Source: an uncultured Pseudanabaenaceae cyanobacterium
Lineage (GTDB): Bacteria; Cyanobacteriota; Cyanobacteriia; PCC-9006; JAAUQQ01
Direction of reading: 5' to 3'
Assembly: GCA_938021205.1 (NCBI GenBank)
Contig: CALIGI010000058.1
Location: 13,169 to 77,168 of the forward strand
Length of the DNA: 64,000 bases
The position numbers and the translations under genes are program-made. The notes beneath the pieces are model-generated. The model saw nothing but the letters and a program-made list of their open reading frames with translations. It had not been told where the DNA came from and searched no databases. This document shows, piece after piece, positions 38,043 to 58,718 of this stretch. How positions within the stretch are numbered: position 1 is the stretch's first letter; each line of letters begins with the position of its first letter.

Positions 38043-38178
38043 GTCTAGGAATAATTAGGTGATGAATAAATGCCAATTTCTAATTATCTAATTCTCCTGT
38101 CGGCGATCGCTTAAAACAGCCTACCCCGGCCCTATCTTTTCTCCTGGCTGATTCACTAAAGACGTGCGAGATTGATGA

Positions 38179-38787
38179 ATGATCACAGTAACCTTAGGTA
38201 CAATTCCTTACCGCTTCAACCGTTCTATCGTTTGGCTCAAAGCTTTGTTGGATAGTGGTGTTATTGATGAACCTGTTTTCATTCAATACGGCACTAGTGA
38301 TATTTCTGCGCTGATCAATCATCCTCTCGTCACGGCTGAGGTCGCTGTTACCCAGGCCAAGCTCAAGGCTATGGTAGAGCGCTCTCGATTTGTCATCTCC
38401 CATGCTGGACAAGGCTCCACTCGCCTGATTGCTGCATCCCAGACCCGTTTTGTTCTTCTACCTCGTCTAGCTCTGTATGATGAGCATGTGGATGACCATC
38501 AGTTGATGTTTGCCCGTAGTGTTGCCAGTCGTGGGGTTCACCACTGCACTACATTTGAGGCTTTAGAGCAGGCCATTCTCAACCCTCCGGCATTATGCCC
38601 GCCCAGCTTATTTGAAGGTCCTAAGTTAACTGCATATTTGCTCAAGTGCTACCCGGAACGGTCTATCGTCAATAGTTCCGCCCCCTGGTACAGCCACCTA
38701 TTGCTGCGTCAAGCTAGGCGCTCTTATTTTGATTGCAGCATCGTGGTTCGTCATGACAAGTCTGGCATGGTCACCCACGATTTCTAG
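38179..38787 (+). CDS. Alg13-like catalytic subunit of the split glycosyltransferase (Glyco_tran_28_C; PssE/Cps14G-like).
   Basis: MITVTLGTIPYRFNR...VFIQYGTSD...FVISHAGQGSTRL...DHQLMFARSV matches the Alg13/MurG C-terminal-half pattern. Confidence 0.7.
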   Translation: MITVTLGTIPYRFNRSIVWLKALLDSGVIDEPVFIQYGTSDISALINHPLVTAEVAVTQAKLKAMVERSRFVISHAGQGSTRLIAASQTRFVLLPRLALYDEHVDDHQLMFARSVASRGVHHCTTFEALEQAILNPPALCPPSLFEGPKLTAYLLKCYPERSIVNSSAPWYSHLLLRQARRSYFDCSIVVRHDKSGMVTHDF

Positions 38788-41558: not shown

Positions 41559-43271
41559 ATGAAACGTCGCGTTCTTGCCCTGGGTCTAGATGCTGCTGAC
41601 CCCACCTTAATGGAACCTTGGATGGACCAGGGCCTGCTGCCGAATCTCAACTTCCTGCGTCAAAACGGTGCCTACGGCCATCTTCGTACCCAAATCGGTC
41701 ACCAGGGCCAGCATGAGAACTTCTCCAATACGGAGCCTCTCTGGGTTATGGCCATGACGGGCTGCCTTCCCCACAAGACAGGCTTTTGGGACACGATTGA
41801 GTATGACCCTAACCATTACAGTATCAAGTTGGATTCGGTTTATGGGGGCTATGACTATGGGGAATATAAGCCCTTTTACGCTCTGGATAATTCCTGCACA
41901 GGCTCGCCTCGCGATCGCCTCAATGCAACCGTTTTTGACATTCCCGTCACTCGCGTTATCGAAGGCATTCGAGGCACCCAAATTACAGGCTGGGGTGGCC
42001 ACCATCCCTTCTATCCCAGTGAATCTAATCCCCCCGAAGCCCTGGAAATGATTCTACAAAAATTTGGTCCCAACCCGGTCTACCGTAAGGACAACGGCAA
42101 ATGGTGGGATCAAAAATATGGTGCTTGGATTCAACAGGCCCTACCCGCTAGCATTACCGCCCGTACTGCCATTGGCAAAGCTCTGGTCAAACGTCAGGAC
42201 TGGGACCTCTGCATGATCGGCTTTGGGGAAACCCATACCGCTGGTCATGATCTCTATGATCAAAGTCAGCCTGACCACCCCTTCTACCCATTTCGTCAAC
42301 CTAAAAACGGTGCTGACCCTCTACTCAAGGTCTATCAGCAAGTGGACGAAGCTTTGGGCAAAATCTTCTCAGCGGCCCCTGGAGATACCTACATCGTTAG
42401 CTATTCCCTCCATGGCATTGGCCCCAACCATACGGATTTGCTGAGCCTATTCTTTTTGGGTGAAGTGATGTATCGCTGGAATTTTCCTGGCCAAATCGGC
42501 TTTACCGATGGCGAGCTTTCCCAGCCTCCCGCTGAGCCCATTCGCCAACCCCAGCGCGGTGGCTGGAGCGATGAAATTTGGTGCCAGCTCGCTGATGATA
42601 ACGAGCTGAGACGCTGGTGGCGGCGGCATTGTCCCACTCGCTTCTGGCCCACCCAAGACAATGGCCTCACTTCTCCAGTTGGACTCAAACGTCAAGGCCA
42701 ATCCCAAAGCTGGATGCCGATCCTGGCCTATCGACATTGCTGGCCTAATATGCGTGCCTTTGCGCTCCCCGGCTTTGCTGATGGTCAAATCCGCATCAAT
42801 CTGCAGGGTCGCGAAGCCAATGGTCAGGTTGCCCCAGAAGACTACAATGCCACCTGTCATGAACTCATTGAAATGCTTCATGGGCTCAAGGACAGCCGCA
42901 GCGGCTTACCCCTCGTCAAAGCAGTTCAGCGTACGCGCGCTGGAGCTGATGATGAGAGCCATCGCCATCCCCATGCCGATCTCATGGTGATCTGGAATGA
43001 CTGTCCAACGGATGTGATTGAAAGCCCCCAGCTCGGTCGTATTGGCCCGGTCACCTACAACCGTCCCGGTGGCCATAGAGCCCGAGGTCATTTCATGGTC
43101 CAAGGTCCTGGAATAAAACCGGGCAGTCGCTTGCCAACGGGACAGGCCGTTGATGTTGCTGCCACGCTCCTGCACCTCTTGGGTGAAGATCAACCGGAGA
43201 ATTTTGATGGGCAACCTCTGCTCAGTCTAGATCCTAGCCACATCCCCGAACTGTCTCTCTCCGATGCCTAG
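41559..43271 (+). CDS. Alkaline-phosphatase-superfamily enzyme (type I phosphodiesterase/nucleotide pyrophosphatase-like). Start assigned to MKRRVLAL; the six-frame ORF starts at 41511.
   Basis: N-terminus VLALGLDAADPTLMEPWMDQGLLPNL...GAYG matches the metal-site opener of the AP superfamily. TGCLPHKTG is the putative nucleophile loop. Paralogous to 50686..52344. Confidence 0.65.
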   Translation: MKRRVLALGLDAADPTLMEPWMDQGLLPNLNFLRQNGAYGHLRTQIGHQGQHENFSNTEPLWVMAMTGCLPHKTGFWDTIEYDPNHYSIKLDSVYGGYDYGEYKPFYALDNSCTGSPRDRLNATVFDIPVTRVIEGIRGTQITGWGGHHPFYPSESNPPEALEMILQKFGPNPVYRKDNGKWWDQKYGAWIQQALPASITARTAIGKALVKRQDWDLCMIGFGETHTAGHDLYDQSQPDHPFYPFRQPKNGADPLLKVYQQVDEALGKIFSAAPGDTYIVSYSLHGIGPNHTDLLSLFFLGEVMYRWNFPGQIGFTDGELSQPPAEPIRQPQRGGWSDEIWCQLADDNELRRWWRRHCPTRFWPTQDNGLTSPVGLKRQGQSQSWMPILAYRHCWPNMRAFALPGFADGQIRINLQGREANGQVAPEDYNATCHELIEMLHGLKDSRSGLPLVKAVQRTRAGADDESHRHPHADLMVIWNDCPTDVIESPQLGRIGPVTYNRPGGHRARGHFMVQGPGIKPGSRLPTGQAVDVAATLLHLLGEDQPENFDGQPLLSLDPSHIPELSLSDA

Positions 43272-43390: not shown

Positions 43391-44710
43391 ATGACCTTGC
43401 CTCTCATTTTTGTGCGCCTGGAAAAGGCCTTTACTGTTTCGGTGCTAATTCTGTATTCTGGTGGACCTTTCACGGTCTTCCTCTCCGGAGGATATAGCCA
43501 GGGTGAGCCTGGAAATGCTCCGGCGGATTATCCCATCATGAAGTTGGTGTTCATTTGCACTTACTGTATCTTTGCTGCTTTGCTGACTTGCCGTTGGCGA
43601 CAGACCCTAGAGACGCTATTGCGCGATCGCTTCACCCTTCTCTTGGTCGCCCTGGCCGCAGGTTCCTTTGCTTGGTCTTCGACCCCTGACGAAACCTTCG
43701 CGAAGAGTATTGCCTTTATTGGTACAACGCTGTTTGGCCTTTATCTCGCGGGACGCTACTCCCAGGAGGAGCAACTCCGACTCCTGGCGTGGGCCTTTGG
43801 GGGGATTGTCTGTCTCAGCTTTTTCTATGCTATTGCCTTGCCCAAGTATGGAATTATGGGCGGTACCCACACGGGAGACTGGCGCGGGATTTACACCCAT
43901 AAAAATACCTTGGGTAAGTTGATGGTCTTTAGTGTCGCGGTTTTTTTATTGCGATCGCTTCAGCCCAAACGGCCTCGTTCCCACGCCCGCTTTTGGTCCT
44001 TGATGGGCTTGATGGGGTCCGTAATGCTGATTGGTCTCTGCACCTCAAAGGGGGCCTTAATTAATGCGAGTGTTGTTATTGCGGCGATCGTGGCCTGCCT
44101 CGCCCTAAGTCGTTGGTCCATCTCCTTTCTGCTGCCCTGCCTCATCGGCAGCTTTGCCTTCACCCTGGGCAGCGGCATTTGGATTTCTCAACATCTCGCT
44201 GTCATCGCGAACCTGCTCAATAAAGACGTCACCCTGACGGGTCGCACAAAAATCTGGGCTCTGACCTTCGACAAGCTCGTCGAGCAGCCTTGGTTTGGCT
44301 ATGGCTATTACGGCTTCTGGCAAGGACTCGATAGCGAAGCCGGTGATATTTGGCGCATCTATCTCTGGGAGACGCCCAATGCTCACAACGGCTTCCTCGA
44401 TATTGCCATTCAGCTTGGCTTCATCGGTCTTTCTCTCTTCTTCGTCAGTCTCCTCTACCATGCCATTCTCAGTCTTATCCAGCTCCGCCAAAGTCAATCC
44501 GTCACCCATATCTGGCCTCTGGCCTTCATGGTTTACATGCTCATGGGTAACCTTGCGGAGAGTAGCCTTTTAGTGCCTAATGACCTGTTTTGGGTGTTCT
44601 ATGTCGCCCTGAGTCTCCAGCCTTACCAGCTGACCCAGACGCAACTTCAGCCCCGTGATCTGCCAGCCCCTGCAACCCAACAAAATTCTTTGGAGGGCTA
44701 CAGTTCATGA
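43391..44710 (+). CDS. O-antigen ligase / Wzy-like polymerase family integral membrane protein.
   Basis: About 11 TM helices with a large periplasmic loop near the C-terminus (Wzy_C-like: NAHNGFLDIAIQLGFIG). Confidence 0.7.
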   Translation: MTLPLIFVRLEKAFTVSVLILYSGGPFTVFLSGGYSQGEPGNAPADYPIMKLVFICTYCIFAALLTCRWRQTLETLLRDRFTLLLVALAAGSFAWSSTPDETFAKSIAFIGTTLFGLYLAGRYSQEEQLRLLAWAFGGIVCLSFFYAIALPKYGIMGGTHTGDWRGIYTHKNTLGKLMVFSVAVFLLRSLQPKRPRSHARFWSLMGLMGSVMLIGLCTSKGALINASVVIAAIVACLALSRWSISFLLPCLIGSFAFTLGSGIWISQHLAVIANLLNKDVTLTGRTKIWALTFDKLVEQPWFGYGYYGFWQGLDSEAGDIWRIYLWETPNAHNGFLDIAIQLGFIGLSLFFVSLLYHAILSLIQLRQSQSVTHIWPLAFMVYMLMGNLAESSLLVPNDLFWVFYVALSLQPYQLTQTQLQPRDLPAPATQQNSLEGYSS

Positions 44711-45993
44711 AATCCCTCCTCGGTAAGCTCAATAAATTGCGGAATAACAGCACTGCCCAGAGCACCCTCTGGATTCTAGGGGCTCGCCTGCTGCGAACTT
44801 TGCTTCAATCTGCCTACTTCTTGCTTGTGGCTCGTGCCCTAGGAGCCCAGCAATACGGCACCTTTATTGGCGTGATGGCTCTGACGAAGGTCTTACTTCC
44901 CTTTGCAGCCTGGGGGGCTGCCCAGGTGCTGACCAAGCAAGTGGCGCGTAATCGAGAACATTTTCCCCAAGCCTGGGGCAATGCCCTTTATCTGGTTACC
45001 ACCTTTTCCCTCTTGAGCTTTGCCTTGCTCATCCCTGCCGGGGAAATCATCTTGCCCAACGTTGCCCATCTTGGCCTTTGGGTCAGCATTGGTATTGCCG
45101 ATCTTTTCTTCTCCCGTGTCCTCGATGTAGCCCTTAAGGTTTTTTTGGCCGTAGAGCTGGCTCACAGAAATGCTCAGCTCCATGTTCTACTCAGTATTAA
45201 CAGTGTTCTCGCGGCCCTCTGCCTAAGCTTGTTCATTCCTGAACCCACGGCTTTAATTTGGGGACAGTTTTATCTCCTCAGCCGCATTGCGACTGCTGCG
45301 GTGGCCCTCTTTCTCGTCTGGCGCGATATCGGTCCACCTCGCCTGGCTCTCAAGCAAATCCACCCCGAACTCACCCAGGGCTTTTACTTTGCTGTAGACC
45401 TCTCCGCTCAAAGCTTCTCTACCGATCTAGATAAAACGATGCTGGCTCGCATGGCCACTCTGCAGGCCACCGGTATCTATGCTGCGGCCTATCGCATTCT
45501 TGATGTGGCCATGGCCCCAGTCTTATCTGTCATGTCTGTGTCCTATGCCAAGTTCTTTAAAGAAGGAGCCGCTGGTATCCAAGGCAGTTTTAGCGTTGCC
45601 AAGCGACTAGTTCCCCTCGCAGGCACTTATGGTGCCATCGCGACGGTCGGTCTTTGGTTCGTAGCACCGCTGGTTCCCTCTGTTTTGGGACCGGAATATG
45701 AGCCTGCGATCGCGGCCTTACGTTGGCTTTCCCCCATTCTGCTGTTTAAATCCTTGCAATACTTCGCCGCTGATACGCTCACAGGTGCGGGCCTGCAGGG
45801 TTACCGCACGTTTTTGCAAGTGGTCATGGCCATCTTGAACGGTCTAGGAAATGCCTGGCTTATCCCACTGTATTCATGGAAGGGAGCCGCCTGGGCTAGC
45901 CTCGCGACAGATGGAGTCCTAACCTTAAGCCTCTGGGTATTAGTCGCCTTTTTCCACCATCGAGCTCGCAGTACTCGGCCTGTAAAGGCTTAA
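44707..45993 (+). CDS. Wzx-type oligosaccharide flippase (MOP/PST family).
   Basis: Twelve or more TM helices. N-terminus LWILGARLLRTLLQSAYFLLVARALGAQQYGTF is typical of the PST family. The ATGA overlap with the upstream gene suggests translational coupling. Confidence 0.8.
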   Translation: MKSLLGKLNKLRNNSTAQSTLWILGARLLRTLLQSAYFLLVARALGAQQYGTFIGVMALTKVLLPFAAWGAAQVLTKQVARNREHFPQAWGNALYLVTTFSLLSFALLIPAGEIILPNVAHLGLWVSIGIADLFFSRVLDVALKVFLAVELAHRNAQLHVLLSINSVLAALCLSLFIPEPTALIWGQFYLLSRIATAAVALFLVWRDIGPPRLALKQIHPELTQGFYFAVDLSAQSFSTDLDKTMLARMATLQATGIYAAAYRILDVAMAPVLSVMSVSYAKFFKEGAAGIQGSFSVAKRLVPLAGTYGAIATVGLWFVAPLVPSVLGPEYEPAIAALRWLSPILLFKSLQYFAADTLTGAGLQGYRTFLQVVMAILNGLGNAWLIPLYSWKGAAWASLATDGVLTLSLWVLVAFFHHRARSTRPVKA

Positions 45994-46102: not shown

Positions 46103-47113
46103 TTAAGGAGCCGTGCGCCTTACACCGTAGAGCGTCTTTACGAGGCGGCGATAACCCGCTTCCCCAAAGAACTTCATCATGTTAATGGCTAAACTAAGTC
46201 GCCAGTATTCCTTGGTTTGCCACAGACCAGGGTTGTATTCCACAGCCTGAGCCCGCATCTCCTTGGCGGCAGCGATATCCTTCTCAACACATTGAAGTGG
46301 CTTCCAGGCTAGATCCAAATAAACATTGCCGTAGGCACGCTTTTTTAATGCCTCTAGGTTGGGCACTTTCGCTTCCTCAGCGGCGTTAAAAGCTTTATCC
46401 AGCACAATATTGAAACTACGTTCCATTTGACGCCAATTCCGAGAGGCACTGTTCTCATGTTGACGGTAGCCTACTAGGGGTTGGGGCACAGCCACAAAGG
46501 GATGATGCAGTGCCAGGCGTAGCCACATATCCCAGTCCTCTACAGAGGAACCTAGATTCTGGTCAAACATGCCGAGGGAATCGAAATAACAGCGCTTCAC
46601 CACTGGCGTGCTGCCGCAACCCACAAAATTGAACAAAACTAAGTCTGACCAAACTTCTCCTTCTGCTTCGCCTTTGAAGATGCGTCCCGTTGGAACGCCT
46701 TGGGCATCGACTAGGGCAGACCAGGTATAGGCCAAGGCAGCCTCTGGCGATCGCAACAATGCTGCCATTTGTAGTTCTAGCTTCGCTGAATCCCAAAGGT
46801 CATCGGCATCCAAAAAAGCGACATAATCAGCTCGAGACTCGCGAATTCCGGTATTGCGAGCCCCAGCCAAGCCTCGATTTTCCTGGGATACCAGCCGAAA
46901 GCGAGGGTCATCTTGAGACTGGGCCCAATCTCGAATATGGTCCGTGCTGCCATCATCCACAACGATCACTTCAAAATCTGTGAAAGTCTGTTGCCACAAA
47001 GATTTTAAGGTCTCAGGTAAATAGACCATCGCGTTGTAAGCAGGAATCACTATTGAAACAGCAGGTTTCGCGATCGCAGACTGAACCATTGGGTTAGAAC
47101 TTTTTTCCGACAT
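46103..47113 (-). CDS. Glycosyltransferase family 2.
   Basis: VSIVIPAYNAMVYLPETLKSLWQQTFTDFEVIVVDDGSTD...LDADD. About 55% identical by eye to 49191..50180. Confidence 0.85.
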   Translation of the reverse strand: MSEKSSNPMVQSAIAKPAVSIVIPAYNAMVYLPETLKSLWQQTFTDFEVIVVDDGSTDHIRDWAQSQDDPRFRLVSQENRGLAGARNTGIRESRADYVAFLDADDLWDSAKLELQMAALLRSPEAALAYTWSALVDAQGVPTGRIFKGEAEGEVWSDLVLFNFVGCGSTPVVKRCYFDSLGMFDQNLGSSVEDWDMWLRLALHHPFVAVPQPLVGYRQHENSASRNWRQMERSFNIVLDKAFNAAEEAKVPNLEALKKRAYGNVYLDLAWKPLQCVEKDIAAAKEMRAQAVEYNPGLWQTKEYWRLSLAINMMKFFGEAGYRRLVKTLYGVRRTAP

Positions 47114-47617: not shown

Positions 47618-48886
47618 ATGCTAATTGATCGCTTAAAAACCTTTGCTTCTAGCCGATACGCATCCAATATTGGTTGGCTTGGCGGTGCGGAATTAGTCCA
47701 GCGAATTTTTCGCCTTGGGGCCACAGTCGTATTGGCTCGCCTCTTTAGTAAGACTGACTATGGCATGGTCTCAGCCGTATATAGCGTTTTTGAATTTGCT
47801 AATGTCATTAGTGTCCGAGGAGGAATCTCAGCCAAGGTTGTTCAGACAGATGACGATGAACTTGAGGAAGTCTGCCAGACAGCCTACTCCCTCAACTGGA
47901 TCATTATGGGGGCCCTGTTTGTTATCCAATGCCTGTTGGCCTATCCCATTGCTTTGTATTACAAGAATACGAGCTTAGTCTTGCCGATTTGTGCACTGGG
48001 CTTGAGTTATCTAATTATCCCAGCCTACATTGTTCAGGGGGCGCTATTAGATCGACGTAACCTACTTCAGGTAAGAGCTTGGTGCATGTCGGCCCAAGCC
48101 ATTGTCAGTAACCTTATCATCATGGCCATGGCCTTCCTGGGTTATGGCGTCTGGTCCGTTGTTTGGGCTATCGTGATTAGCTATCTTGTCTGGTATCCAA
48201 TCGTGGCTCATTTCAGCGATTGGAAGCCTAAGAAATTCCCTTACTTCAGAGCTTGGCGCAGTATTTTGAACTTCGGTGGTAAGCGTCTTGGAGTGGATTT
48301 ACTCAATCGTTTCCGTCAAGATGCCGATTACTTGATCGTGGCTCGTTTTCTTGGACTTAGCGATTTGGGCGTCTATTTCTTTGCCTATAGTGCTGGAATT
48401 GGTATTAGCCAAAGTATTATCAATTCTTTTGCTAGTGCTTGGTATCCCTATTTTTGTGAGGCTCGCCGCGATCGCGCCCAGCTGCGAGAACGTTTCCTGC
48501 GTAGCCTTAAGACGATTGCTCTGACCATTGCCCCACTCGTGATTCTTCAGTCTTGCCTCGCTCCGTTCTACGTACCCATTGTCTTTGGCGATAAGTGGGT
48601 TGATGCAATTCCTATTTTGATCATCATTTGCATCTCGGCAGTGCCTATGGCGCTTGCCCAGGCGACTTCAAAGCTCCTCCAGTCGATGGATGAGATTGGT
48701 CTAGATATTGCTTGGAATACCGCTTTCACATTGATTTTTATTACTGCACTCGTGATCGCAGTTCCCCACGGGATTTTGCCGCTAGCTATCACTGTGCTAG
48801 TGGTCCGCTGGATGTTTATTCCGGTATTTACCTTGTTTATACTGAAGCGAAAATTATCTATTCCTACAGATATACAAGCTATGTAA
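47618..48886 (+). CDS. Second Wzx-type flippase (PST family).
   Basis: NIGWLGGAELVQRIFRLGATVVLARLFSKTDYGMVSAV plus 12 TM helices. Confidence 0.75.
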   Translation: MLIDRLKTFASSRYASNIGWLGGAELVQRIFRLGATVVLARLFSKTDYGMVSAVYSVFEFANVISVRGGISAKVVQTDDDELEEVCQTAYSLNWIIMGALFVIQCLLAYPIALYYKNTSLVLPICALGLSYLIIPAYIVQGALLDRRNLLQVRAWCMSAQAIVSNLIIMAMAFLGYGVWSVVWAIVISYLVWYPIVAHFSDWKPKKFPYFRAWRSILNFGGKRLGVDLLNRFRQDADYLIVARFLGLSDLGVYFFAYSAGIGISQSIINSFASAWYPYFCEARRDRAQLRERFLRSLKTIALTIAPLVILQSCLAPFYVPIVFGDKWVDAIPILIIICISAVPMALAQATSKLLQSMDEIGLDIAWNTAFTLIFITALVIAVPHGILPLAITVLVVRWMFIPVFTLFILKRKLSIPTDIQAM

Positions 48887-49190: not shown

Positions 49191-50180
49191 TTATCCTTGG
49201 AGAACCAAACGACGTAAGCGGTAAATCAACGCTAGCAATTGCCCATAAGTCTGGTCACCTAACAACTTCATTACTATCGCTGTCGCCTTCAAACGCCAAT
49301 AATCTCGTGAAAAACGAAGAGAGGGATCATGGTTTAAAGCAGCCTGCACAAGCTCCTTCGACTTCGCAAAATTTTTGGTTGTACTCAATAATGGCTGCCA
49401 AGCGAGGGACAGTTTGATCCGTCCATAGCCTTGCTCTTTAATCTGTTCCAGCTCTTCTGCTTTAATATCCTCTGGAGGATTTTTAAAGGCTTTCTCGAAC
49501 AAGATCTCTGCACTACGAAGCATCGCATCCCAGTTTTTAGATGCGCTATTAGGGAGCTGTCGATAGCCAACTAAGGGATGCTTAATGACCCTAAATTCAT
49601 AATTCAGGGCAAGCCGGAGCCACATGTCCAGATCTTCCATGTAGGAGCCCAGGTTCTCATCAAAGCAACCTGCCTGTTCAAAACAAGCTCGACGAATGAG
49701 AGGCGTACTGCCACAGCCAACAAAATTTCGGTGAATCAAGTCTCTCCAAACCCACCCCTCTTCGGTACTTTCTAGAAAACGACCTGTGGGCTTACCCGCT
49801 TGATCAATTAGAGCTAGCCAAGTATAAACCAGACCAACAGTAGAGCTTTCATCGAGAACAGTAACTTGGCGACTGAGCTTGTCAACCTCCCATAAATCAT
49901 CAGCATCAAGCAAGGCTAAGTACTCGCCCTTCGCTTCTGCGATCGCCGTATTACGGGCTCCAGCTAACCCGCGATTGACCTGGGAAACTAGACGCACTCG
50001 CTGATCTGTGACCTCAGTGCGATACCAGTCTTTGATCTGATCGGAGCTACCATCGTCGACAATGATGACTTCATAATCCGTGAAGTCTTGGGCTAGAACA
50101 CTTGCCAATGTCTGAGGCAAATAATCCATCGCGTTGTAGGCAGGGATTAATACCGATACCTTCGGAAGCAGCTCAGCCAT
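49191..50180 (-). CDS. Glycosyltransferase family 2, paralog of 46103..47113.
   Basis: VSVLIPAYNAMDYLPQTLASVLAQDFTDYEVIIVDDGSSD...LDADD...FVGCGSTP, collinear with the other GT2. Confidence 0.85.
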   Translation of the reverse strand: MAELLPKVSVLIPAYNAMDYLPQTLASVLAQDFTDYEVIIVDDGSSDQIKDWYRTEVTDQRVRLVSQVNRGLAGARNTAIAEAKGEYLALLDADDLWEVDKLSRQVTVLDESSTVGLVYTWLALIDQAGKPTGRFLESTEEGWVWRDLIHRNFVGCGSTPLIRRACFEQAGCFDENLGSYMEDLDMWLRLALNYEFRVIKHPLVGYRQLPNSASKNWDAMLRSAEILFEKAFKNPPEDIKAEELEQIKEQGYGRIKLSLAWQPLLSTTKNFAKSKELVQAALNHDPSLRFSRDYWRLKATAIVMKLLGDQTYGQLLALIYRLRRLVLQG

Positions 50181-50685: not shown

Positions 50686-52344
50686 CTAGCGAGTCGCGAG
50701 CGCGGCGGCGGGCACAGCCTGCAAGAGGCTGTGCCCTTCCAAATGGTTTGGCTTTGGAGCGTTCATTAAGTCCAAAATAGTAGGAGCTAAATCCAGAGCA
50801 TGAGCCTTAACTACATCAGAACCCGGCTGGATGCGATCGTCTTTCAAAAACACAAATCCCCGAGGTGTATGACTGCCGGCACGCTGATAGGGAGCAGGGC
50901 CTATTTGACCCAAAGAATCGCTTTCAACGCAGTCTGTCAGCTCAGTTTCATTCCACATCACAATCAAATCTGCATCGGGCATTCCTAGCGCATTTAAATT
51001 TTCAGTGGTACGTGTCCGGATGATGTGGTCCACGATTGGTTTTCCTGTCTTCACACTTCGCAAAGATTCAATTTGAGTGATAACCTCATCGCATACTGAA
51101 TCGTAATCTTCCCGTGCAACACAGCCATTTGGCTCGCGGCCCTGAAGGTTAATACGAATGTAGCCCTCTGAAAAGCTAGGCAGGGCAAAGGCTTTCATCT
51201 TGTGCCAGGCCGGCGCGTACCAGCTTACGGGCTGCCAGTCAAAACTCCCACCCTGATTTTGCAATTGATAAGGCGAGACAAAATCCCCTTTTGAGGACAG
51301 CCCTAGGCGATCTAAAAGACCTGCATAAATGCGGTGGAGCTTGGTTGGAGCTACAGATCGTATCCAGCGAGTGACTGGATTGGGATCATGTTTTTGGGCC
51401 CACAGATCTCGATAGGAACGCTGCTGTTGACGCCAAGCCGACTGACTTGAGGCTGCTCCAAATCCCACCTTGCCGGGGAAATTCCACCGGTACATCGCCT
51501 CACCTAGGAAAAAAGTACTAGTTAAGTCTAGATTGTTGGCCTGCATTCCATGGGCAGAAAAGACAATGACCGAAGCATTCTCAGGGGCAGCAGCCAAAAT
51601 CTCTCCAATAGATTCATCAATTTTCTTATAGGTCTCTAACAGATAATTTGTTGAAGTATCTCCTTCGCGGCGATGTACAGGATGCTCTGGGTCACCCAAG
51701 TGTAAGAGACAGTGCCCCGCAGAATGGGTCTCGCTGAAAATGGTCAGAAAGAGATTCCAATCATCTTGTTGGAGCAGATCTCTGCAAATTGCAGAACGTC
51801 GGCGAATCCCCTCTTGCAATTCTCCATGGAGGCGAGTTACCTGGGCTGGACTATAGATATTGGCATGGTCATGGCCAAAAGCCGGATGTTCACCGTGGCG
51901 TTGAATGATCTCTTGAAGCTTAGTTGCAGGCAAAGAATGACTTGGGGTTTGAGGAGAATGAGCCCCCCAGCCTAAAACTTGTATACCATTAGCATCAGGG
52001 GCTAGAGGTGCCTGGGGTATATCGAAAACGGAAACCTTATAATCCTTGCCTAGGTCATAAAAAGGACCATAATCGCAAAAATCATAAGCACCAACCGCAT
52101 CAACTCGGTAGGTACCTTCTTTTAGCTTGACAGGTCCCCAGTACCCAGTAGTACTGGGGGAGCAGCCTGTCAAAAAAGTCGTCCAAGGTGTCTCAGCGCG
52201 ATAGGAAGAATAATTGTTGAGGCGTCCATACGCTCCAGATTGCTTTAGTGCAGCTAAGTTCTTAAGTAGACCTTGCTCAATGCATTCTTCTATGAACTGA
52301 GGCTCAGCTGCATCCAAGCCAATAGCAATAACAGTTTTTGTCAT
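50686..52344 (-). CDS. Alkaline-phosphatase-superfamily enzyme, paralog of 41559..43271. Start assigned to MTKTVIAIGLD; the six-frame ORF extends to 52374.
   Basis: VIAIGLDAAEPQFIEECIEQGLLKNL...GAYG and TGCSPSTTGYWG. Shared FFLGE(V/A)MYRWNFPG block with its paralog. Confidence 0.65.
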   Translation of the reverse strand: MTKTVIAIGLDAAEPQFIEECIEQGLLKNLAALKQSGAYGRLNNYSSYRAETPWTTFLTGCSPSTTGYWGPVKLKEGTYRVDAVGAYDFCDYGPFYDLGKDYKVSVFDIPQAPLAPDANGIQVLGWGAHSPQTPSHSLPATKLQEIIQRHGEHPAFGHDHANIYSPAQVTRLHGELQEGIRRRSAICRDLLQQDDWNLFLTIFSETHSAGHCLLHLGDPEHPVHRREGDTSTNYLLETYKKIDESIGEILAAAPENASVIVFSAHGMQANNLDLTSTFFLGEAMYRWNFPGKVGFGAASSQSAWRQQQRSYRDLWAQKHDPNPVTRWIRSVAPTKLHRIYAGLLDRLGLSSKGDFVSPYQLQNQGGSFDWQPVSWYAPAWHKMKAFALPSFSEGYIRINLQGREPNGCVAREDYDSVCDEVITQIESLRSVKTGKPIVDHIIRTRTTENLNALGMPDADLIVMWNETELTDCVESDSLGQIGPAPYQRAGSHTPRGFVFLKDDRIQPGSDVVKAHALDLAPTILDLMNAPKPNHLEGHSLLQAVPAAALATR

Positions 52345-52748
52345 AGTAGCCCCAACGGTTAGTTCGACTAGCAATAATGTAACGGCATCATCTCTTCTCT
52401 AAATCGTCTCAGCTTCTACTAAGAACTCATTCTTGGAGATAAATCAACAAGCTTGATGGATCTACAAGGGGAAGCAGTACGATTCCCAGTGCTTTTAAGA
52501 CTATTCGGGATAAATTTTACACTAGTTGATGCTAGTACACTGATCTAACATCAACTCGTGAGCTGTGGGTTTAGCCTAAGTCTCTCGACTGAAGTAGATG
52601 CAATATGTATGCTTCCCTATTATCCATCCTACAAACAGAGATGCCCTCTCAGGCTTTGTAGGCTTTACAATCTCTTTGTAGAAGGGATGAAAGCTTAAAG
52701 AAGTCACCATTACGCTGCCTACATGACATTCTGAGACCTAGATCTCTT

Positions 52749-54206
52749 TCAAGATTTGGCAATATGCACCATCTCTGAAGCTTCTTGGGTATTTTGCCAA
52801 TCCCAACCTGCCACTGCAAATAGGACCCACCAGTAGAAAAACAACATTGTGTGGTCCCAAATATTCTCTGTTAACATTCCGAATAGCAAGGCCAGTAGCA
52901 TAACTATCATTACATAGCAGAGATTCTTTTGAGGAGTCGTGGAGTTGGGGGAGCGGAGCAGGCTGCTTAAGCGATAGAACTGAGCTATAAAAAACACCAT
53001 TATTCCGCTAAAGCCAACAATTCCCTGCTCGAAAATCCAACGGACATAATCATTGTGAGGCTCTAAATCATTGGAGCTTAGTGAAGCGCTAAGCCCTATG
53101 CCATGTCCAAACCACCGGGCCTGCTGCCATCGAGTTAGGTAGTCTGTCCATTGGGCAATACGCCAGTTGAAACTGTTGTAGTCACTCTTCGACAAAATAA
53201 TAGCTCTGGATGCATCGATGTCAGGATTGAGGAGCGGTGTCTGTGCAATTGAGGCCAAGCGTTCTTGTCCAAACTCAGAACTGCCAAACAGCGCCACAAC
53301 CACGCCAAACAATAGGAGCCCAAGGAAGAACTTAGAAAAAGAAATATTGCGCATCGCCATGCCAAGGATCAGGATTGCCAACATCCCTAAACTAAATAGC
53401 GCCTTCGTTGTGACGTAGAACAAACCCAGAACTGCGAGTATGCCAATCCAAACCCAGCGCTTGCCGCGACTCGCTAGAAGCTTCCAGTAGGTCAAACCGA
53501 TAAAAAAGAACAGGAATGTCGCAAAGCTATTCGGGTGACCAATCGTTCCTCGAATTCTAAGTCCAACGTCAGGTCCGGGCCCCCGTAAGGTGCTAACGAG
53601 AGGAGATATTTCAGTGGGAAGCGCAGTAGGGATAACCATCTGCAGCAAAGCCACAATCAAAGGGCATAGCAGTGAAAGCAGTAGAAGAGTAGCCAGTTTC
53701 TCAGGCCTTATAAGCCCTTTGAATTGCATGATCAGGATATAGACCAAAAACCAAGAGCCTAAACGTACGAACTCACGAATAGATTCTCCAGACAAAGCAC
53801 TACTCCCCCCCAGTCCCCCCAGCATGAGCAGAACAACCCAAACTCCTTGAAAGGCACACCAACCGGCAAAGAAGAAGAGGAATGGATCGGTATGGATTGT
53901 CTCCCGACGCAGCAGCTTGATAACCACATATCCGATCGCCAAGGCATCAAGCCCTACAGCAAAGAGAGCAGGCAACTGGATTGCAGAGAACGCGTCTATG
54001 GTGCTCCGCAAAATGAGAAGCGCCACAATGAAATAATCAAAACGACGGATACAAGCGATCGCGCCGACCACTCCTAAGGACAAAACCACGGCCCCAAATG
54101 GGTCAAGACCCGCCACAAGCCCAGTGACTAAGCCAATCAGACAGAACAGCACCGTCACAAGCCCAGCAATCGCGAAATTCTTAAACTTCAGTGTTTGTAA
54201 GGCCAT
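52749..54206 (-). CDS. Second O-antigen ligase / Wzy-like polymerase family membrane protein.
   Basis: About 12 TM helices and a C-terminal periplasmic loop with a HNDYVRWIFEQGIVG (Wzy_C-like) motif. Confidence 0.65.
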   Translation of the reverse strand: MALQTLKFKNFAIAGLVTVLFCLIGLVTGLVAGLDPFGAVVLSLGVVGAIACIRRFDYFIVALLILRSTIDAFSAIQLPALFAVGLDALAIGYVVIKLLRRETIHTDPFLFFFAGWCAFQGVWVVLLMLGGLGGSSALSGESIREFVRLGSWFLVYILIMQFKGLIRPEKLATLLLLSLLCPLIVALLQMVIPTALPTEISPLVSTLRGPGPDVGLRIRGTIGHPNSFATFLFFFIGLTYWKLLASRGKRWVWIGILAVLGLFYVTTKALFSLGMLAILILGMAMRNISFSKFFLGLLLFGVVVALFGSSEFGQERLASIAQTPLLNPDIDASRAIILSKSDYNSFNWRIAQWTDYLTRWQQARWFGHGIGLSASLSSNDLEPHNDYVRWIFEQGIVGFSGIMVFFIAQFYRLSSLLRSPNSTTPQKNLCYVMIVMLLALLFGMLTENIWDHTMLFFYWWVLFAVAGWDWQNTQEASEMVHIAKS

Positions 54207-54318
54207 AGGGCAGTGGCATTCTCCAGATTCAGGTTCATTTCACAGTTTTTACCGCAATCATTTATCAGCCGAATGAGCTGATTCCCGCATCAAAGAACTC
54301 TAAGAAACTTCCTTTGAA

Positions 54319-55149
54319 TCACTTCTCACCGACAACAATAGCTCCCAAAAGGAATCTTCCAGGCAAACTCCGTCCTACAAGCTTACGCAATTTCAAGGGA
54401 GCAGCATCTAAAAACTTTTCAATCGTTTCTACAACAAAGACAGGAAATCTCAAATAAATACCCTTACCACCAACATAAGTTTGGACTCGTGAAAACCCAG
54501 CTGTGAGAAAAGCAGCTCTTAAGTCAGTATAGGTATACTCTTTAAGATGAAAGCCAGTCGCAACTGGATCAAAGTACTGGGAGACATCATGGGGTCCTGA
54601 AAGACGGTTTGGAGTAATGCAAACGTACTTTCCGCCCATTTTGAGAATACGTTGAATTTCCTGTAACTGAGTGTCTGCATCTTCTGGATGGAGATGCTCC
54701 ATCAATTGGTTGCTATAAACCAAGTCCACATTCTCGTCACCTAGAGGAATTGAACAACCATCAAATAGAACGAGTTCAAAATTCTCTGGTAGGTCATTGC
54801 GCTGGGTAATTTCACTGGAGACGTCCAAAGCTTTTACAGCTTTAACCTTAGAGCAAGCTTCAATGGAAAAGTTACAATCTCCAGGTCCAATTTCAGCAAA
54901 AGAAGTCTCTGGCTTTAAGAACCGAGAAACTAGTCGCATTTTACGATCCACTTCTCGCTTCGAATCGTTTAGATCCTTCTTGCGCGTAATCTGAGGGTGG
55001 AATGGAATCTCCTGAAACATTTGATCATACAGAGAACTATAAAGTGTCTTTCGCTCTTCACGGTTCGAATTTTTTAGCTTAGATGCCAGACGCTTTTCTA
55101 ACTCATAGTGAGTTTGAATTTGCTCGAAAGTTTGATAAGGCGCTTTCAT
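54319..55149 (-). CDS. Class I SAM-dependent methyltransferase.
   Basis: Motif I-like AEIGPGDCNF and motif post-I/II VDLVYSNQLMEHL. Confidence 0.8.
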   Translation of the reverse strand: MKAPYQTFEQIQTHYELEKRLASKLKNSNREERKTLYSSLYDQMFQEIPFHPQITRKKDLNDSKREVDRKMRLVSRFLKPETSFAEIGPGDCNFSIEACSKVKAVKALDVSSEITQRNDLPENFELVLFDGCSIPLGDENVDLVYSNQLMEHLHPEDADTQLQEIQRILKMGGKYVCITPNRLSGPHDVSQYFDPVATGFHLKEYTYTDLRAAFLTAGFSRVQTYVGGKGIYLRFPVFVVETIEKFLDAAPLKLRKLVGRSLPGRFLLGAIVVGEK

Positions 55150-55234
55150 AGGATTCCTTTGTTAAGAAAATTAAGTGAGATTAAATATGGTCAAACTGAA
55201 ATGAACAAAGCCGTTCTTCATTCAAAGTTTTTGT

Positions 55235-55931
55235 TTATGCACCTCCTCCCACTAAAAAGAGAGTCTTCTTACTCCTCTGAAGGATGAGGTAATAGAGCAA
55301 AAATGAGCTTGTCGTTCCAATAAAAGTTGAAAATATACCTGGTAGAGCCAGAGTGAGGAAAAGCATTTTCATCAGCAGTGTAAAAGCGCGTGTAAAGTAG
55401 CCATGAAAAATATAGATAGTCAGGCTCTGCTTGCCAATATATGAAATCACTTTGCGAAAGCCAATTGCTTTGGCATCATCACCAGAATTTCCCCTGCTAA
55501 GTAACTTAACACAAGCTATTATACCCATCAACTATCAGAAAAATGTAGGTAAACCGAATACCAATCGAGAAATCTCAAAGCCTAGTATTTGGGGGGGGCA
55601 ACGAGCAACAACAGGCAAAAGCTAGTGCCAAAGGAGAAGACAGTGCGAGTAATATGAAAGGTTTCTTATCCCATAGTCTAAAACGATCTTCTTCTAACTG
55701 GTGCCAAATTAAAGGGAAGAAATGCCCCAAGATTAATCCAACTGCATAAAATAAATTCCAATAGCCATTGCGCAAAATCTGGTTGTTGGTATTCATACCA
55801 ATCACAAAGAATGCAATGGATATGGTGCCATACAGAATCAAAGAACTTTGATCGCGAAAATACAAAAATGTAAACAGAGTGATCAAAATGAGAGCATGGA
55901 GAAACCCAAAAATCTGATAAGGCGAGGTCAT
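55235..55931 (-). pseudogene. Decayed acyltransferase-3 (OafA-like O-acyltransferase) remnant split into two frame-disrupted fragments.
   Basis: Two adjacent short ORFs (55575..55931 and 55235..55531) both encode hydrophobic acyltransferase-3-like segments (FGFLHALILITLF...; SLTIYIFHGYFTRAF) inside an AT-rich, ORF-poor stretch. Confidence 0.45.
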
Positions 55932-56504
55932 TGAATTGAGTAGGTCAAGCCAGGAAAGCCCATTGCCTTTATAGAAATTCTGAAAAAAAAGAAGTAGAGT
56001 AGGGCGCAGACTATTAGTGGAACAAGAAGATGAGATAATTTCTTCGAAAAAAAAGATTACGGTAACTTCTTTTTCGATTACTGAAAGCGGAAAAGATAAG
56101 ATCTAAAATCGCAAAGAAAACAGGCATATGGATTGAATTAGCTCGATCCGAAATCTAGCCTAAGAGCGGAAGATCTGATCGAGCTCTCGCATTCCATGAT
56201 CTGAAGTAAAGCCAATCATGTGGCTAATTGCGATCAATATAATAATGGCGACACCAAAAAATCAATACAGCTCGGTCGGAAGTCGTTATCTAAATCGTTG
56301 TTTTGAGGTCTCACCACCCATCATTATCCTATTCTTTTCAATATGCTTTTATACATGGCGAATATTTGTTTTAAGCAACAATTGGAAAGATTGAATAGGG
56401 CTAAGATCTAGTCAATTGAGTGACTCCCTGGTGTCGCAGAAGCTTAAATATTAGTCTGCTGATACGCAAGTCAAAATTTTTCATGCCAGCGCGATGTCTC
56501 TTAC

Positions 56505-58718
56505 TTAATCAGGCAGTAGCTCTAATTCTTTTTCAACTCCCCTCGGAGTATTGTTCATATTTTTGAAACTCTCATAACGAGGCAAGGATTGAGATTCATT
56601 GACTACAACACCTAGTACGGGCGTATTGTTGCTTTCAATCTCTGCCATGGACTTGAACATTGCTTCTCGTACCGTCAAATTAGGACGCACAACGAAGACT
56701 AAACCATCGGCATACTGACTTAACGTCAAAGCATCTGCAGATGTGGTGACAGGAGCTGCATCTACAAAAACAAAGTCATAGCCCTTGGAAGCCTCGCGGA
56801 TCGCTATTTCCATTGCAGCAGATTCAGTCACTGTGGAGGGGCGGCTAATAAACTCACCATTCGAGAGAACATCCAAGTTCTCAAATCCACTGGGCTGAAT
56901 TGCTTCCCGTAGGGAGGCCTGGCCTGATACAACATGGGTTAGTCCCACTGTTGAAGGAAGAGCAAATACTTCTTGTTGTTCGGGACGGCTCAAGTTTGCG
57001 TCGATAATCAAGGTTTTGCGGGACAGCATTGCAGAAACAGAAGCTAGGCGTGCAATGACGTCGGATTTACCTTCGTTTTCCACGGTGCTGCTCATGACAA
57101 TTACTCTAGGCTTGTCTTTAATGCGAAGCTCTAGGGTTTTGAGTAGACTGCGGTAGGGCTCCACTACGCCGGGACTATCTAGGAAACGCTCTAGCTTGCT
57201 GGTGCGTGATGCAGAGAGTAGTAACTGACCAGACGGTTTTGGCAAGACTGCTAAAACAGGCACTTCGCTAGAGGCTTCAATTTCATTCGCATTGCGCAGA
57301 GTGCCGTTGAAGGCTTCGAGTAGCAGCACAATTCCAGTCGCTAATACGCCGCCAGCCGCTGTGGCGATCGCTAAGATTACCGGAACTTGAGGTGCTGCAG
57401 CTACGGTAGGTACATAGGCCCAGGAGACAATGCGAATATTACTCAATAGCTGAGCTTCTGCAATGCGGGCTTCTTGTAGCTTGCCCTGAAGTAAGGCCAG
57501 ATTCGACTTGACTTCATCTCGTTTTCGTTCAAGCGTTGACAGGTCCTGTTTTCGTTGTGGTACAGTCGCCAACTGGTCTTGCAAAAAAGATTGGTTCTGT
57601 TTAAGCAAGTTGAGATGATTATTTAGCGCTGCCGTTTCAACTGTGGTTAGCACATAGCGGGAGATCAAGTCTTGGCTGAGGTTGTCCTGGGCAACTGAGC
57701 CAGCGGATAGAGACTGAGAATCTGGTATGAGCTGTCCCAGGCGTTGACTATAGAGGCTCCTTAAATCACCCTGCTGCTGGGCCAGGGCTAAAACCTGGGG
57801 GTGATTATCTTGATATGTTGCCCGTGCCTCAATAATTTGAGATCCCAGGTTGATCAGCTTGGTCTTTAAATCTGCCAGCTCTTGATCTTGACCAATACGA
57901 GAAGCAACATAGGCTCGTTCAGGAGAATCAAACCCAGTCATTTCCCGAAGCATCCCTGTGCGGGTCTGAGCCTCTTGGAGTTGACCTGCAACCACTCGTT
58001 GCTGTTCTTGCAACTGAGAAAGGTTTGTCAACAGGGTATTGGTTTGTGCGTTTACATCCACTACTCCATTGGCTTGGCGATATTGAGTTTCAATCGTCTC
58101 AGCTTGGGTCAGCTTCTCTGCTTCCTGGGGAACTTGGCTCTCTAGAAACTGGCGAATAGAAGACGCTTCTAGACGGATATTCTCACTGCTTTGATTGATC
58201 ACTTCAGCAGCAATTCGATTAAGGAGTTGAGCTGTTAAATCAGGATCTAACCCCTCATAGCCGATCTGTAAAATATTGGTGGCAGGAATAACCTTGACTT
58301 GTAGCGATCGCTGGACTTGTCCAACTGTCGGCAAGGGAACTCCCTGCGCTTCGAAAGCCGGAGCTTCTTGTTGGAGCGCTCTCTCTAATACACGCTGAGA
58401 CTTCACTAACTCTGCTTGGGTTGCCATAGGATCTGCGCTACCCGCTCTGCCAGGAGGCCGAGTTAAGCCCTGGCCAAGAGTGGATACACTACTTGCTTGG
58501 GGATCTTCGACTGAGACTCGAACGGCAGAAAAATAAGACTTTTCTGCCACAGATATATAAAAACCAGCTCCAATAATGGCAGCTGAGAAGGTCAAGAGCG
58601 CTGGCAGCCAGTTGCGCTTGATCGGAGGCAAAATCGAAGAGAGCTTATCCATAGTTGCTTTTCTAATATCGCCAAGACTGGAGGTAGACTGGCTGGCCGG
58701 AGGCCTATCGCCACGCAC
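56505..58718 (-). CDS. Wzc-like polysaccharide co-polymerase with a C-terminal BY-kinase-type P-loop ATPase domain. The start is probably the internal MDKLSS at 58652.
   Basis: Two TMs flanking a coiled-coil periplasmic domain. Walker A SSTVENEGKSD, Walker A' TLIIDANLSRP and Walker B DFVFVDAAPV. No C-terminal tyrosine cluster is visible. Confidence 0.8.
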   Translation of the reverse strand: MRGDRPPASQSTSSLGDIRKATMDKLSSILPPIKRNWLPALLTFSAAIIGAGFYISVAEKSYFSAVRVSVEDPQASSVSTLGQGLTRPPGRAGSADPMATQAELVKSQRVLERALQQEAPAFEAQGVPLPTVGQVQRSLQVKVIPATNILQIGYEGLDPDLTAQLLNRIAAEVINQSSENIRLEASSIRQFLESQVPQEAEKLTQAETIETQYRQANGVVDVNAQTNTLLTNLSQLQEQQRVVAGQLQEAQTRTGMLREMTGFDSPERAYVASRIGQDQELADLKTKLINLGSQIIEARATYQDNHPQVLALAQQQGDLRSLYSQRLGQLIPDSQSLSAGSVAQDNLSQDLISRYVLTTVETAALNNHLNLLKQNQSFLQDQLATVPQRKQDLSTLERKRDEVKSNLALLQGKLQEARIAEAQLLSNIRIVSWAYVPTVAAAPQVPVILAIATAAGGVLATGIVLLLEAFNGTLRNANEIEASSEVPVLAVLPKPSGQLLLSASRTSKLERFLDSPGVVEPYRSLLKTLELRIKDKPRVIVMSSTVENEGKSDVIARLASVSAMLSRKTLIIDANLSRPEQQEVFALPSTVGLTHVVSGQASLREAIQPSGFENLDVLSNGEFISRPSTVTESAAMEIAIREASKGYDFVFVDAAPVTTSADALTLSQYADGLVFVVRPNLTVREAMFKSMAEIESNNTPVLGVVVNESQSLPRYESFKNMNNTPRGVEKELELLPD

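Follow-up and report, generated by a model that had tools for sequence, protein, structure and literature searches.

Paired, diverged alkaline phosphatase superfamily genes in a polysaccharide locus of an uncultured Pseudanabaenaceae cyanobacterium

Two genes within a 64,000-nucleotide stretch of an uncultured Pseudanabaenaceae cyanobacterium (assembly GCA_938021205.1, contig CALIGI010000058.1, positions 13,169 to 77,168 of the forward strand; hereafter the window) encode diverged proteins of the alkaline phosphatase (AP) superfamily. Here, we show that both, copy 1 (AP1; 41559..43271, plus strand) and copy 2 (AP2; 50686..52344, minus strand), are cytoplasmic, soluble and distant relatives of the nucleotide pyrophosphatases/phosphodiesterases (NPPs) and PhnA, and that they are ordinary members of a large, annotated but uncharacterised branch of the superfamily, to which the NPPs and PhnA are the nearest characterised relatives. 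We hold this family and fold assignment with high confidence, and equally the rejection of a cysteine-derived formylglycine nucleophile, which an earlier reading of copy 2 had suggested. The wider picture that we favour, although only tentatively, is of a cytoplasmic metalloenzyme that would work beside a family-2 glycosyltransferase (GT2), with a sugar-diphosphate or nucleotide-linked intermediate as its substrate. Extracellular polysaccharides of cyanobacteria are ecologically and industrially important, the genes that tailor them are poorly known, and a conserved cytoplasmic enzyme beside glycosyltransferases, flippase and polymerase represents a gap in the pathway model. The pair is of moderate interest on three counts: an active site that departs from the canonical one, a Thr in one neighbour where the other has Ala, and a placement in polysaccharide loci that is conserved and unexplained.

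Family, fold and paralogue history

Copy 2 consists of 552 amino acids and is identical to database protein P0001; its open reading frame (ORF) spans 50686..52374 on the minus strand, and the start conserved in the family is the ATG at 52344. Copy 1 consists of 570 amino acids and is identical to P0121. The genes are convergent, on opposite strands and separated by about 7.4 kb, in agreement with the original prediction, made from the sequence alone, that copy 2 is placed opposite its partner. The identity of roughly 40% then estimated by eye is close to the BLASTP value of 38% over the full length (55% positives, E = 7e-131, 546/552 residues). Both shared segments named at the time were recovered in the pairwise alignment, namely the N-terminal motif V(I/L)A(I/L)GLDAA(E/D)P and a block that reads FFLGE(A/V)MYRWNFPG. 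In copy 2 the block is FFLGEAMYRWNFPG (residues 278-291; 51472..51513, minus strand) and holds the family-invariant residues E282 and R286, and in copy 1 it is FFLGEVMYRWNFPG (residues 298-311; 42450..42491, plus strand).

Membership of the AP superfamily, likewise proposed at the outset, is supported by profile and structure comparisons. Copy 2 matches the Pfam family of type I phosphodiesterases/nucleotide pyrophosphatases (PF01663) at 1.4e-14 and 55 bits, for a cut-off of 23; copy 1 has no PF01663 match of its own, and its homologues at 80-86% identity carry the domain. For the Pfam sulfatase family (PF00884), copy 2 stays below the threshold (E = 0.11, 12.2 bits, cut-off 25). No NCBIfam model matches either copy, and sequence searches against solved structures gave weak, generic matches only. 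AlphaFold (AF2) models of the two copies, built on 62 and 65 homologues, are confident, with pLDDT values of 89.7 for copy 2 and 92.2 for copy 1. Foldseek searches of the PDB gave, as the leading 50 matches of each model, PhnA, the Xanthomonas (Xac) NPP, ENPP1/3/6/7 and the SPAP phosphatase; these have 10-14% identity and target-normalised TM scores of up to about 0.65, and there is no sulfatase among the top 50 of either model. Signal peptides and hydrophobic segments are absent from both proteins, whose chains open at the first core strand.

With the NPPs (PF01663; for example 2gsn and ENPP1/3) the window proteins share the core alpha/beta fold (Foldseek E values of about 1e-11 to 1e-12), the Asp of the first strand (D11), a nucleophile helix that ends in TG and leads into an x-x-P-x-x-x-G turn, and His counterparts of NPP H214, H258 and H363 (here H211, H265 and H492). 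A Thr at the nucleophile column is shared by copy 1 only, whereas copy 2 has Ala. They differ from the NPPs in having 10-14% identity and about 170 extra residues, which form a cap and helical insertions, and in being devoid of a signal peptide, whereas NPPs are secreted or ecto-enzymes. The active sites also differ: His takes the place of the Asp of D-x-x-x-H, the Asp of D-H-G has given way to Ala, Val or Leu and the Asn behind the turn to Pro or Thr, and there are two extra invariant Glu, E51 and E205. PhnA (1ei6, 3szy, 3t02) is the best Foldseek match of copy 2, is also cytoplasmic and is the sole solved protein that aligns residue by residue over the N-terminal 70 residues, which fixes the motif register. 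Its identity to the window proteins is 10-12%, and it belongs to phosphonate catabolism rather than to a polysaccharide context. PhnA has the full Asp/His ligand set and a Thr nucleophile.

Type I sulfatases (PF00884), the formylglycine enzymes with a C/S-x-P-x-R motif, share the superfamily fold, with weak profile matches around a C-terminal 'D-L-x-P-T-I-L-x-L-x-G', but the window proteins lack C-x-P-x-R at the nucleophile position. There is, in addition, an analogy of function only with BcsG (cellulose), OpgB/OpgE (periplasmic glucans) and enzymes of the LtaS/EptA type, which are AP-superfamily transferases that act on glycans made by GT2 enzymes. Common to these systems and the present one is the genetic coupling of an AP-superfamily protein to a GT2/polysaccharide pathway. 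BcsG and its kind are membrane-anchored, periplasmic domains of the PF00884 type that use lipid head-group donors and keep a Ser/Thr nucleophile, whereas the window proteins are soluble, cytoplasmic and PF01663-like.

Copy 2 has 1189 homologues, and among those listed every source that names an organism is cyanobacterial. The two copies have separate homologue sets, each with more than 100 members at about 45-55% identity, in which the source labels that name an organism are again all cyanobacterial. The proteins are labelled 'alkaline phosphatase family protein', 'nucleotide pyrophosphatase' or 'predicted AlkP superfamily phosphohydrolase/phosphomutase', the labels being those of JGI and NCBI, and the labelled homologues match over 98-100% of the query length, with E values that reach about 1e-270 for non-identical sequences. 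When 1.84 billion cluster representatives were searched with a profile, 2947 matched at E <= 1e-30, a number that rose to 9196 at E <= 1e-10. The family is marked by the motifs E-x-H-x-x-x-H, (L/F)-x-E-x-x-Y-R, R-I-N-L-x-G-R-E and G-x-H; subfamily 2 adds Y-R-A-E-T-P-W-T-T-F-L-T-G-C and subfamily 1 F-S-x-T-E-P-L-W ... T-G-C. Only six positions are fixed within each subfamily yet different between them, and these include the nucleophile column and the neighbours of H129 and H492.

Each copy is closer to relatives in other genera than to its neighbour in the window. Given the separate homologue sets, the two genes are thus paralogues of old standing, one from each of two subfamilies, and not the outcome of a recent duplication. 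The nearest genomes are uncultured Pseudanabaenaceae metagenome-assembled genomes at 79% identity, which hold both copies in the same synteny (L005, L006, L012). Of the earlier proposal that diverged paralogues have been kept in one locus for separate roles, the divergence stands and separate roles are plausible, but a local duplication retained in place is not what the homologue sets indicate. Separate roles are made plausible by the finding that each copy has its own Wzx flippase, Wzy_C protein and GT2, and that the subfamilies pair with different flippase types elsewhere.

Gene conversion was considered as the origin of the near-identical FFLGE block and rejected, as the identity at third codon positions is 0.35 in the block and 0.31 overall. 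Within the F-L-x-E-x-x-Y-R-x-N-F-P-G block, both window copies carry G, M and W at three variable positions, a state found elsewhere in the homologue sets only in P0002, the closest relative of copy 2. The common state may reflect co-evolution, for example through a shared partner or a hetero-oligomer, or chance.

The nucleophile column and the metal-ligand positions

The loop TGCSPSTTG is present in copy 2 as T59-G-C-S-P-S-T-T-G67 (52144..52170, minus strand), and the original prediction took C-S-P-S-T-T-G within it for a nucleophile loop near the sulfatase consensus. The register argues otherwise. Across the superfamily the pattern is nucleophile-x-P-x(6)-T-G-x-x-P-x-x-x-G, seen as T-F-P-N-H...TG in NPPs and as C-x-P-S-R...TG in sulfatases. 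Residues 5-71 of copy 2 align without gaps to PhnA, with D11 on the Asp of C-L-D-G-C, T59-G60 on the T-G of PhnA and C-S-P-S-T-T-G on its S-P-P-A-V-H-G. The PhnA register and the superfamily pattern together thus place the flagged loop in the TG-x-x-P-x-x-x-G turn that follows the nucleophile helix and, since T59-G60 sits on the TG of PhnA, the nucleophile column lies nine residues upstream of T59, at Ala50. The flagged cysteine comes after the TG, ten residues downstream of that column. The lack of an Arg in the C-x-P-like string, which had been noted from the start, is correct.

The cysteine itself (C61) is found in 107 of 120 members of subfamily 2, the others having A, T, V or R, in 119/120 of subfamily 1 and in 42 of 148 wider family representatives (the family clustered at 50% identity). 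The residue is replaced in some members and is a minority state among the wider representatives, and hence is not essential. The motif register, this variability, the sub-threshold PF00884 score and the absence of sulfatases from the top 50 folds led us to reject the sulfatase-like reading. A search of the window ORFs of at least 150 amino acids revealed neither a formylglycine-generating enzyme (FGE) nor a radical S-adenosylmethionine (SAM) maturase. For annotation in general, a C-x-P-like string needs a register check against the helix-ending TG before a formylglycine is called.

At the start of the nucleophile helix copy 2 reads A50-E51-T52 (52189..52197, minus strand), whereas copy 1 has Thr58 (41730..41732, plus strand) in the canonical column; alignment of the two subfamily profiles with hhalign also pairs Ala50 with Thr58. 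The column is Ala in 120/120 members of subfamily 2, and Thr in 117 and Ser in 3 members of subfamily 1. The following residue, E51, is invariant in subfamily 2 (120/120) and is Glu in 119 and Asp in 1 of subfamily 1. T52 is present in 119/120 of subfamily 2, and the same column is mostly Pro in subfamily 1. The T-x-P feature of the NPP nucleophile is accordingly present in copy 1 (T58-E-P) and absent from copy 2 (A50-E-T52-P). In the AF2 models the nucleophile helix spans residues 52-59 in copy 2 and 58-67 in copy 1. It starts at T52 and T58, respectively, so that each copy has a Thr at the helix start, in copy 2 displaced by two residues. The PhnA chain 3t02 also has Ala at the nucleophile column and is distinct in sequence from the other PhnA entries; we take it to be a Thr-to-Ala mutant of the nucleophile.

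Among the 148 wider representatives column 50 is A in 53, S in 29, T in 23, N in 8 and D in 6, and column 52 is T in 28, L in 26 and A in 17, with many members having no hydroxyl at either position. The classical nucleophile is not conserved across the family as a whole. As the two window copies have Thr58 (copy 1) and Ala50/Thr52 (copy 2) within an otherwise identical set of non-canonical ligands, they form a natural experiment on moving, or dispensing with, the nucleophile.

The metal-ligand positions are altered in both copies. E205-T-H207-S-A-G-H211 of copy 2 (51712..51732, minus strand) is the counterpart of the NPP D-x-x-x-H, with His for Asp and an added invariant Glu; E205, H207 and H211 do not vary in either subfamily and hardly vary among the wider representatives. 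S263-A264-H265-G266 (51547..51558, minus strand) corresponds to D-H-G with Ala for Asp, and in profile alignments 'faaHG' falls on the 'taDHG' of iPGM and phosphonate monoester hydrolase. At this Asp column (264) copy 2 has Ala and copy 1 Leu, the residues seen across their subfamilies being A/V/G and V/L, respectively. G490-S-H492-T (50866..50877, minus strand) is the counterpart of the last NPP His ligand, with H492 invariant. In place of the Asn that follows the TG turn in NPPs and PhnA, copy 2 has Pro71 and copy 1 a Thr. Set against the two-metal ligand set of the NPPs (D, D-x-x-x-H, D-H, H), copy 2 thus keeps D11, H211, H265 and H492 and departs from it at His207 and Ala264.

Conservation extends beyond these motifs. 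D11, E205, H207, H211, D243, E282, R286, R397, N399, R403, D459 and H492 are conserved in both subfamilies and in the wider representatives; E51 (mostly), D108, N270 and D273 are further conserved columns. One relative in the same large family, P0381, has T or S at column 50 and keeps E-x-D-x-x-x-H and D-H. Its canonical-type residues confirm the column assignments and indicate that the states in the window copies are derived.

Genomic context, proposed mechanism and alternatives

AP-like genes of this family recur in polysaccharide loci. In Stanieria PCC 7437 the order is Wzc, AP (subfamily 1), GT2, Wzy_C and Wzx, so that the arrangement around AP1 is found again; in Desertifilum it is AP (subfamily 2), acetyltransferase, family-4 glycosyltransferase (GT4) and Wza, then, further on, GT2, Wzx and GT2. 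We counted neighbouring families within 6 kb of an AP gene in 77 genome loci (L005-L081) and found GT2 in 62, hexapeptide acetyltransferase in 23, Wzc in 21, Wza in 16 and sulfotransferase in 11. GT2 is also the commonest same-strand neighbour within 300 nt (25 of 93 AP genes), with overlapping ORFs in three cases. More distant relatives fit the same pattern: P0299 lies in the order family-1 glycosyltransferase (GT1), GT2, AP and GT2 with overlapping ORFs, and P0390 adjoins Wzx, MBOAT and AlgX. Two proteins of about 1000 amino acids, P0311 (L082, 10001-13003) and P0335 (L083, 6394-9456), are fusions of an AP-like domain to a GT2 domain (Glyco_tranf_2_4). P0311 is located outside any obvious polysaccharide cluster, and P0335 is beside a GT4. 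The two subfamilies occur together in 4 of the 77 loci, subfamily 2 being mostly without a subfamily-1 partner.

Copy number varies between genomes. Tandem arrays of two or three AP-like genes per polysaccharide locus were seen in Symploca, Dapis, Xenococcaceae and other cyanobacteria (L028, L031, L038, L040-L042, L047, L054, L072), and several genomes have three or four AP-like copies, with at least four on separate contigs in Oculatella sp. LEGE 06141.

In the mechanism that we propose, a putative metal centre would be held by D11, H207, H211, H265 and H492, with the family-specific E51 and E205 possibly replacing the two lost Asp ligands. Such a centre could cleave, or transfer at, a phosphodiester or diphosphate linkage. 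Candidate substrates are a nucleotide-activated sugar, a repeat unit carried on undecaprenyl diphosphate or a nucleotide by-product, and the proposed reaction would run at the cytoplasmic face together with a GT2. In copy 1, Thr58 may act as a covalent nucleophile, and copy 2 may rely either on the shifted Thr52 or on a water or acceptor molecule activated by Glu51; with Ala50 and an invariant Thr52, copy 2 would have either a shifted nucleophile or no covalent phospho-enzyme intermediate. Most likely, the two copies serve different substrates or polymers.

Several findings weigh against this proposal. A GT2 is directly adjacent in just 27% of AP genes, and the count of 62/77 says little alone because GT2 genes are common in any polysaccharide locus. 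Three residues that are characteristic of NPP catalysis are absent, namely the Asp of D-H-G, that of D-x-x-x-H and the Asn behind the TG turn, and with A, S, T, N and D at column 50 across the family, covalent phosphoryl transfer cannot be assumed. Our literature search found no member of the family with a reported function or in a polysaccharide context. The only cyanobacterial 'type I phosphodiesterase' that we found in a gene-cluster context is NpF5236, from the satellite cluster of scytonemin biosynthesis, a different setting (PMC2726228).

A bolder version, which we consider speculative and rather improbable, is that the clade of the polysaccharide loci is a new catalytic class of the AP superfamily. 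Such a class would have no Ser, Thr or formylglycine nucleophile, would have given up two Asp ligands for a His-rich metal site with Glu51 and Glu205, and would perform an undescribed cytoplasmic step in repeat-unit assembly with GT2 as an obligate partner. The step would be, for example, a cleavage or transfer reaction at the sugar-diphosphate bond, the rescue of stalled undecaprenyl-diphosphate intermediates or the removal of an inhibitory nucleotide by-product. Copy 1, with its Thr, and copy 2, with Ala and a Thr shifted by two residues, would then be two mechanistic states side by side.

The best-surviving alternative, in our view unlikely but worth weighing, is that copy 2 and its subfamily are dead pseudoenzymes, which would bind a nucleotide-sugar or a lipid-linked intermediate and serve a GT2 or the Wzx/Wzy machinery as scaffold or regulator. 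An invariant Ala at the canonical nucleophile column, the lost Asp of D-H-G and the Pro in place of Asn after the TG turn would all fit, and fusion or adjacency to a GT2 also suits a regulatory domain. However, strict or near-strict conservation, as seen for the five His/Asp ligand positions, the two family-specific Glu, three Arg and T52, is typical of an active site under selection, and copy 1 shares all the other substitutions yet keeps its Thr. Nor is subfamily 2 simply the partner of an active paralogue, because it usually occurs without subfamily 1.

A second alternative, for which we see little probability, keeps the enzyme active and changes its chemistry: the AP fold would have been re-purposed for a reaction that is neither phosphoryl nor sulfuryl transfer, such as the metal-dependent hydrolysis of a sugar substituent by a deacetylase or esterase that would use Glu51 as its general base. 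The absence of a family-wide Ser, Thr or Cys nucleophile, the mostly conserved Glu51, the predominance of His among the ligands (H207, H211, H492, H265) compared with the Asp-rich NPP sites, and the nearby acetyltransferase genes in 23/77 loci are in line with this idea. The invariant R286, R397 and R403, on the other hand, suggest an anionic substrate (phosphate or sulfate), and the canonical-type relative P0381 keeps the NPP ligand set. To our knowledge, deacetylase- or esterase-type chemistry has no precedent in the AP superfamily, which also counts against it.

It is very improbable that the genes encode a housekeeping phosphatase or phosphodiesterase for phosphate scavenging, of the PhoV/PafA or NPP type, that is in the locus by chance. 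The PF01663 match and the SPAP phosphatase among the fold matches could be cited in favour, but SPAP (3q3q, 5xwk) is just 13-14% identical, the window proteins have no signal peptide, placement in polysaccharide loci is kept across many cyanobacteria, fusions to GT2 exist, and several copies occur per genome, some in tandem. PhoV of Synechococcus, which is unrelated in detail to the window proteins, has been described as a periplasmic, membrane-associated enzyme (PMC3387780) and has been grouped with PafA (PMC12260270); both features led us to reject an identity with PhoV.

Least credible is an enzyme of the sulfatase type whose C-S-P-S-T-T-G loop would supply its Cys as a formylglycine nucleophile for a sulfated or phosphorylated glycan: a superficial likeness to C-x-P-x-R, the frequency of the Cys in both subfamilies and the sulfotransferase genes within 6 kb in 11 of 77 related loci speak for it, but the misplaced, Arg-free and variable motif, the PF00884 and Foldseek results, the lack of a maturase among the window ORFs searched and the lack of an export signal in either copy speak against it.

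The polysaccharide locus in the window

Both genes lie in a Wzx/Wzy-type polysaccharide locus that extends from about 33.8 to 61.2 kb of the window. It begins with Wzz/GNVR, GT1, Alg14-like, Alg13-like, GT2 and GT4 genes, continues with AP1, WzyA, WzxA, GT2A (minus strand), WzxB and then, all on the minus strand, GT2B, AP2 and WzyB, and ends with a methyltransferase, Wzc and two GT4 genes, also on the minus strand. Between 41511 and 54206 the genes form two partly parallel cassettes, each with an AP-like protein, a Wzy_C, a Wzx and a GT2 of about 330 amino acids.

In the first, copy 1 is directly followed by WzyA (43391..44710, plus strand), after which come WzxA (44707..45993, plus strand) and GT2A (46103..47113, minus strand), a family-2 glycosyltransferase and paralogue of GT2B. 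In the second, GT2B (49191..50180, minus strand; Pfam Glycos_transf_2 and Glyco_tranf_2_2) lies downstream of copy 2, and WzyB (52749..54206, minus strand), a protein of the Wzy_C type (O-antigen ligase/polymerase-like, PF04932) with 10 hydrophobic segments, lies upstream. WzxB (47618..48886, plus strand) is a flippase of the Polysacc_synt_3 type, which recurs near subfamily-2 genes in other genomes. A scan for promoters and terminators around copy 2 was uninformative, with 8 promoter-like sites compared with 4 +/- 2 expected.

The two GT2 proteins are 52% identical, the Wzy proteins 22% (E = 0.002) and the Wzx proteins 26% over 121 amino acids. A recent local or inverted duplication of the four-gene module was considered and rejected, since the Wzy and Wzx pairs are barely related and the AP and GT2 pairs only 38% and 52% identical; the weak likeness of the Wzy and Wzx pairs indicates that the cassettes were assembled rather than duplicated. 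The arrangement suggests that a single locus gives rise to two polymers or two repeat units.

The locus also has two co-polymerase genes of the Wzz/GNVR type, which would fit with two export or chain-length systems. One (56505..58718, minus strand) encodes a Wzc-type co-polymerase/tyrosine kinase of 737 amino acids with Pfam Wzz, GNVR and ParA-type P-loop domains, and the other (33828..35321) a protein of 497 amino acids without the kinase domain. Just upstream of the locus, a gene at 30925..32046 encodes a polyprenyl-phosphate sugar-phosphate transferase of the MraY/WecA type (Glycos_transf_4 and the MraY signature); no initiating transferase of the WbaP type was seen in the window.

Two gene types that accompany AP-like genes in other genomes are absent from the window. 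A 3'-phosphoadenosine 5'-phosphosulfate (PAPS)-type sulfotransferase directly adjoins 7 of 93 AP-like genes on the same strand, and 12 loci contain fusions of a GT2 to an EAL-like C-terminal domain (cyclic di-GMP phosphodiesterase). Both labels, sulfotransferase and EAL, come from representative sequences and are unchecked against Pfam.

At the start of the locus, adjoining Alg14-like and Alg13-like (Glyco_tran_28_C) genes at 37500..38787 form a split glycosyltransferase pair, and the GC content around them (36-38 kb) is low (0.43). The lowest GC content of the window (0.41) is found at 54001..56000, where a class-I methyltransferase gene (54319..55149, minus strand) and an ORF of 118 amino acids that has no Pfam match (55575..55931, minus strand) are located. 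This low-GC stretch may be a later insertion into the locus.

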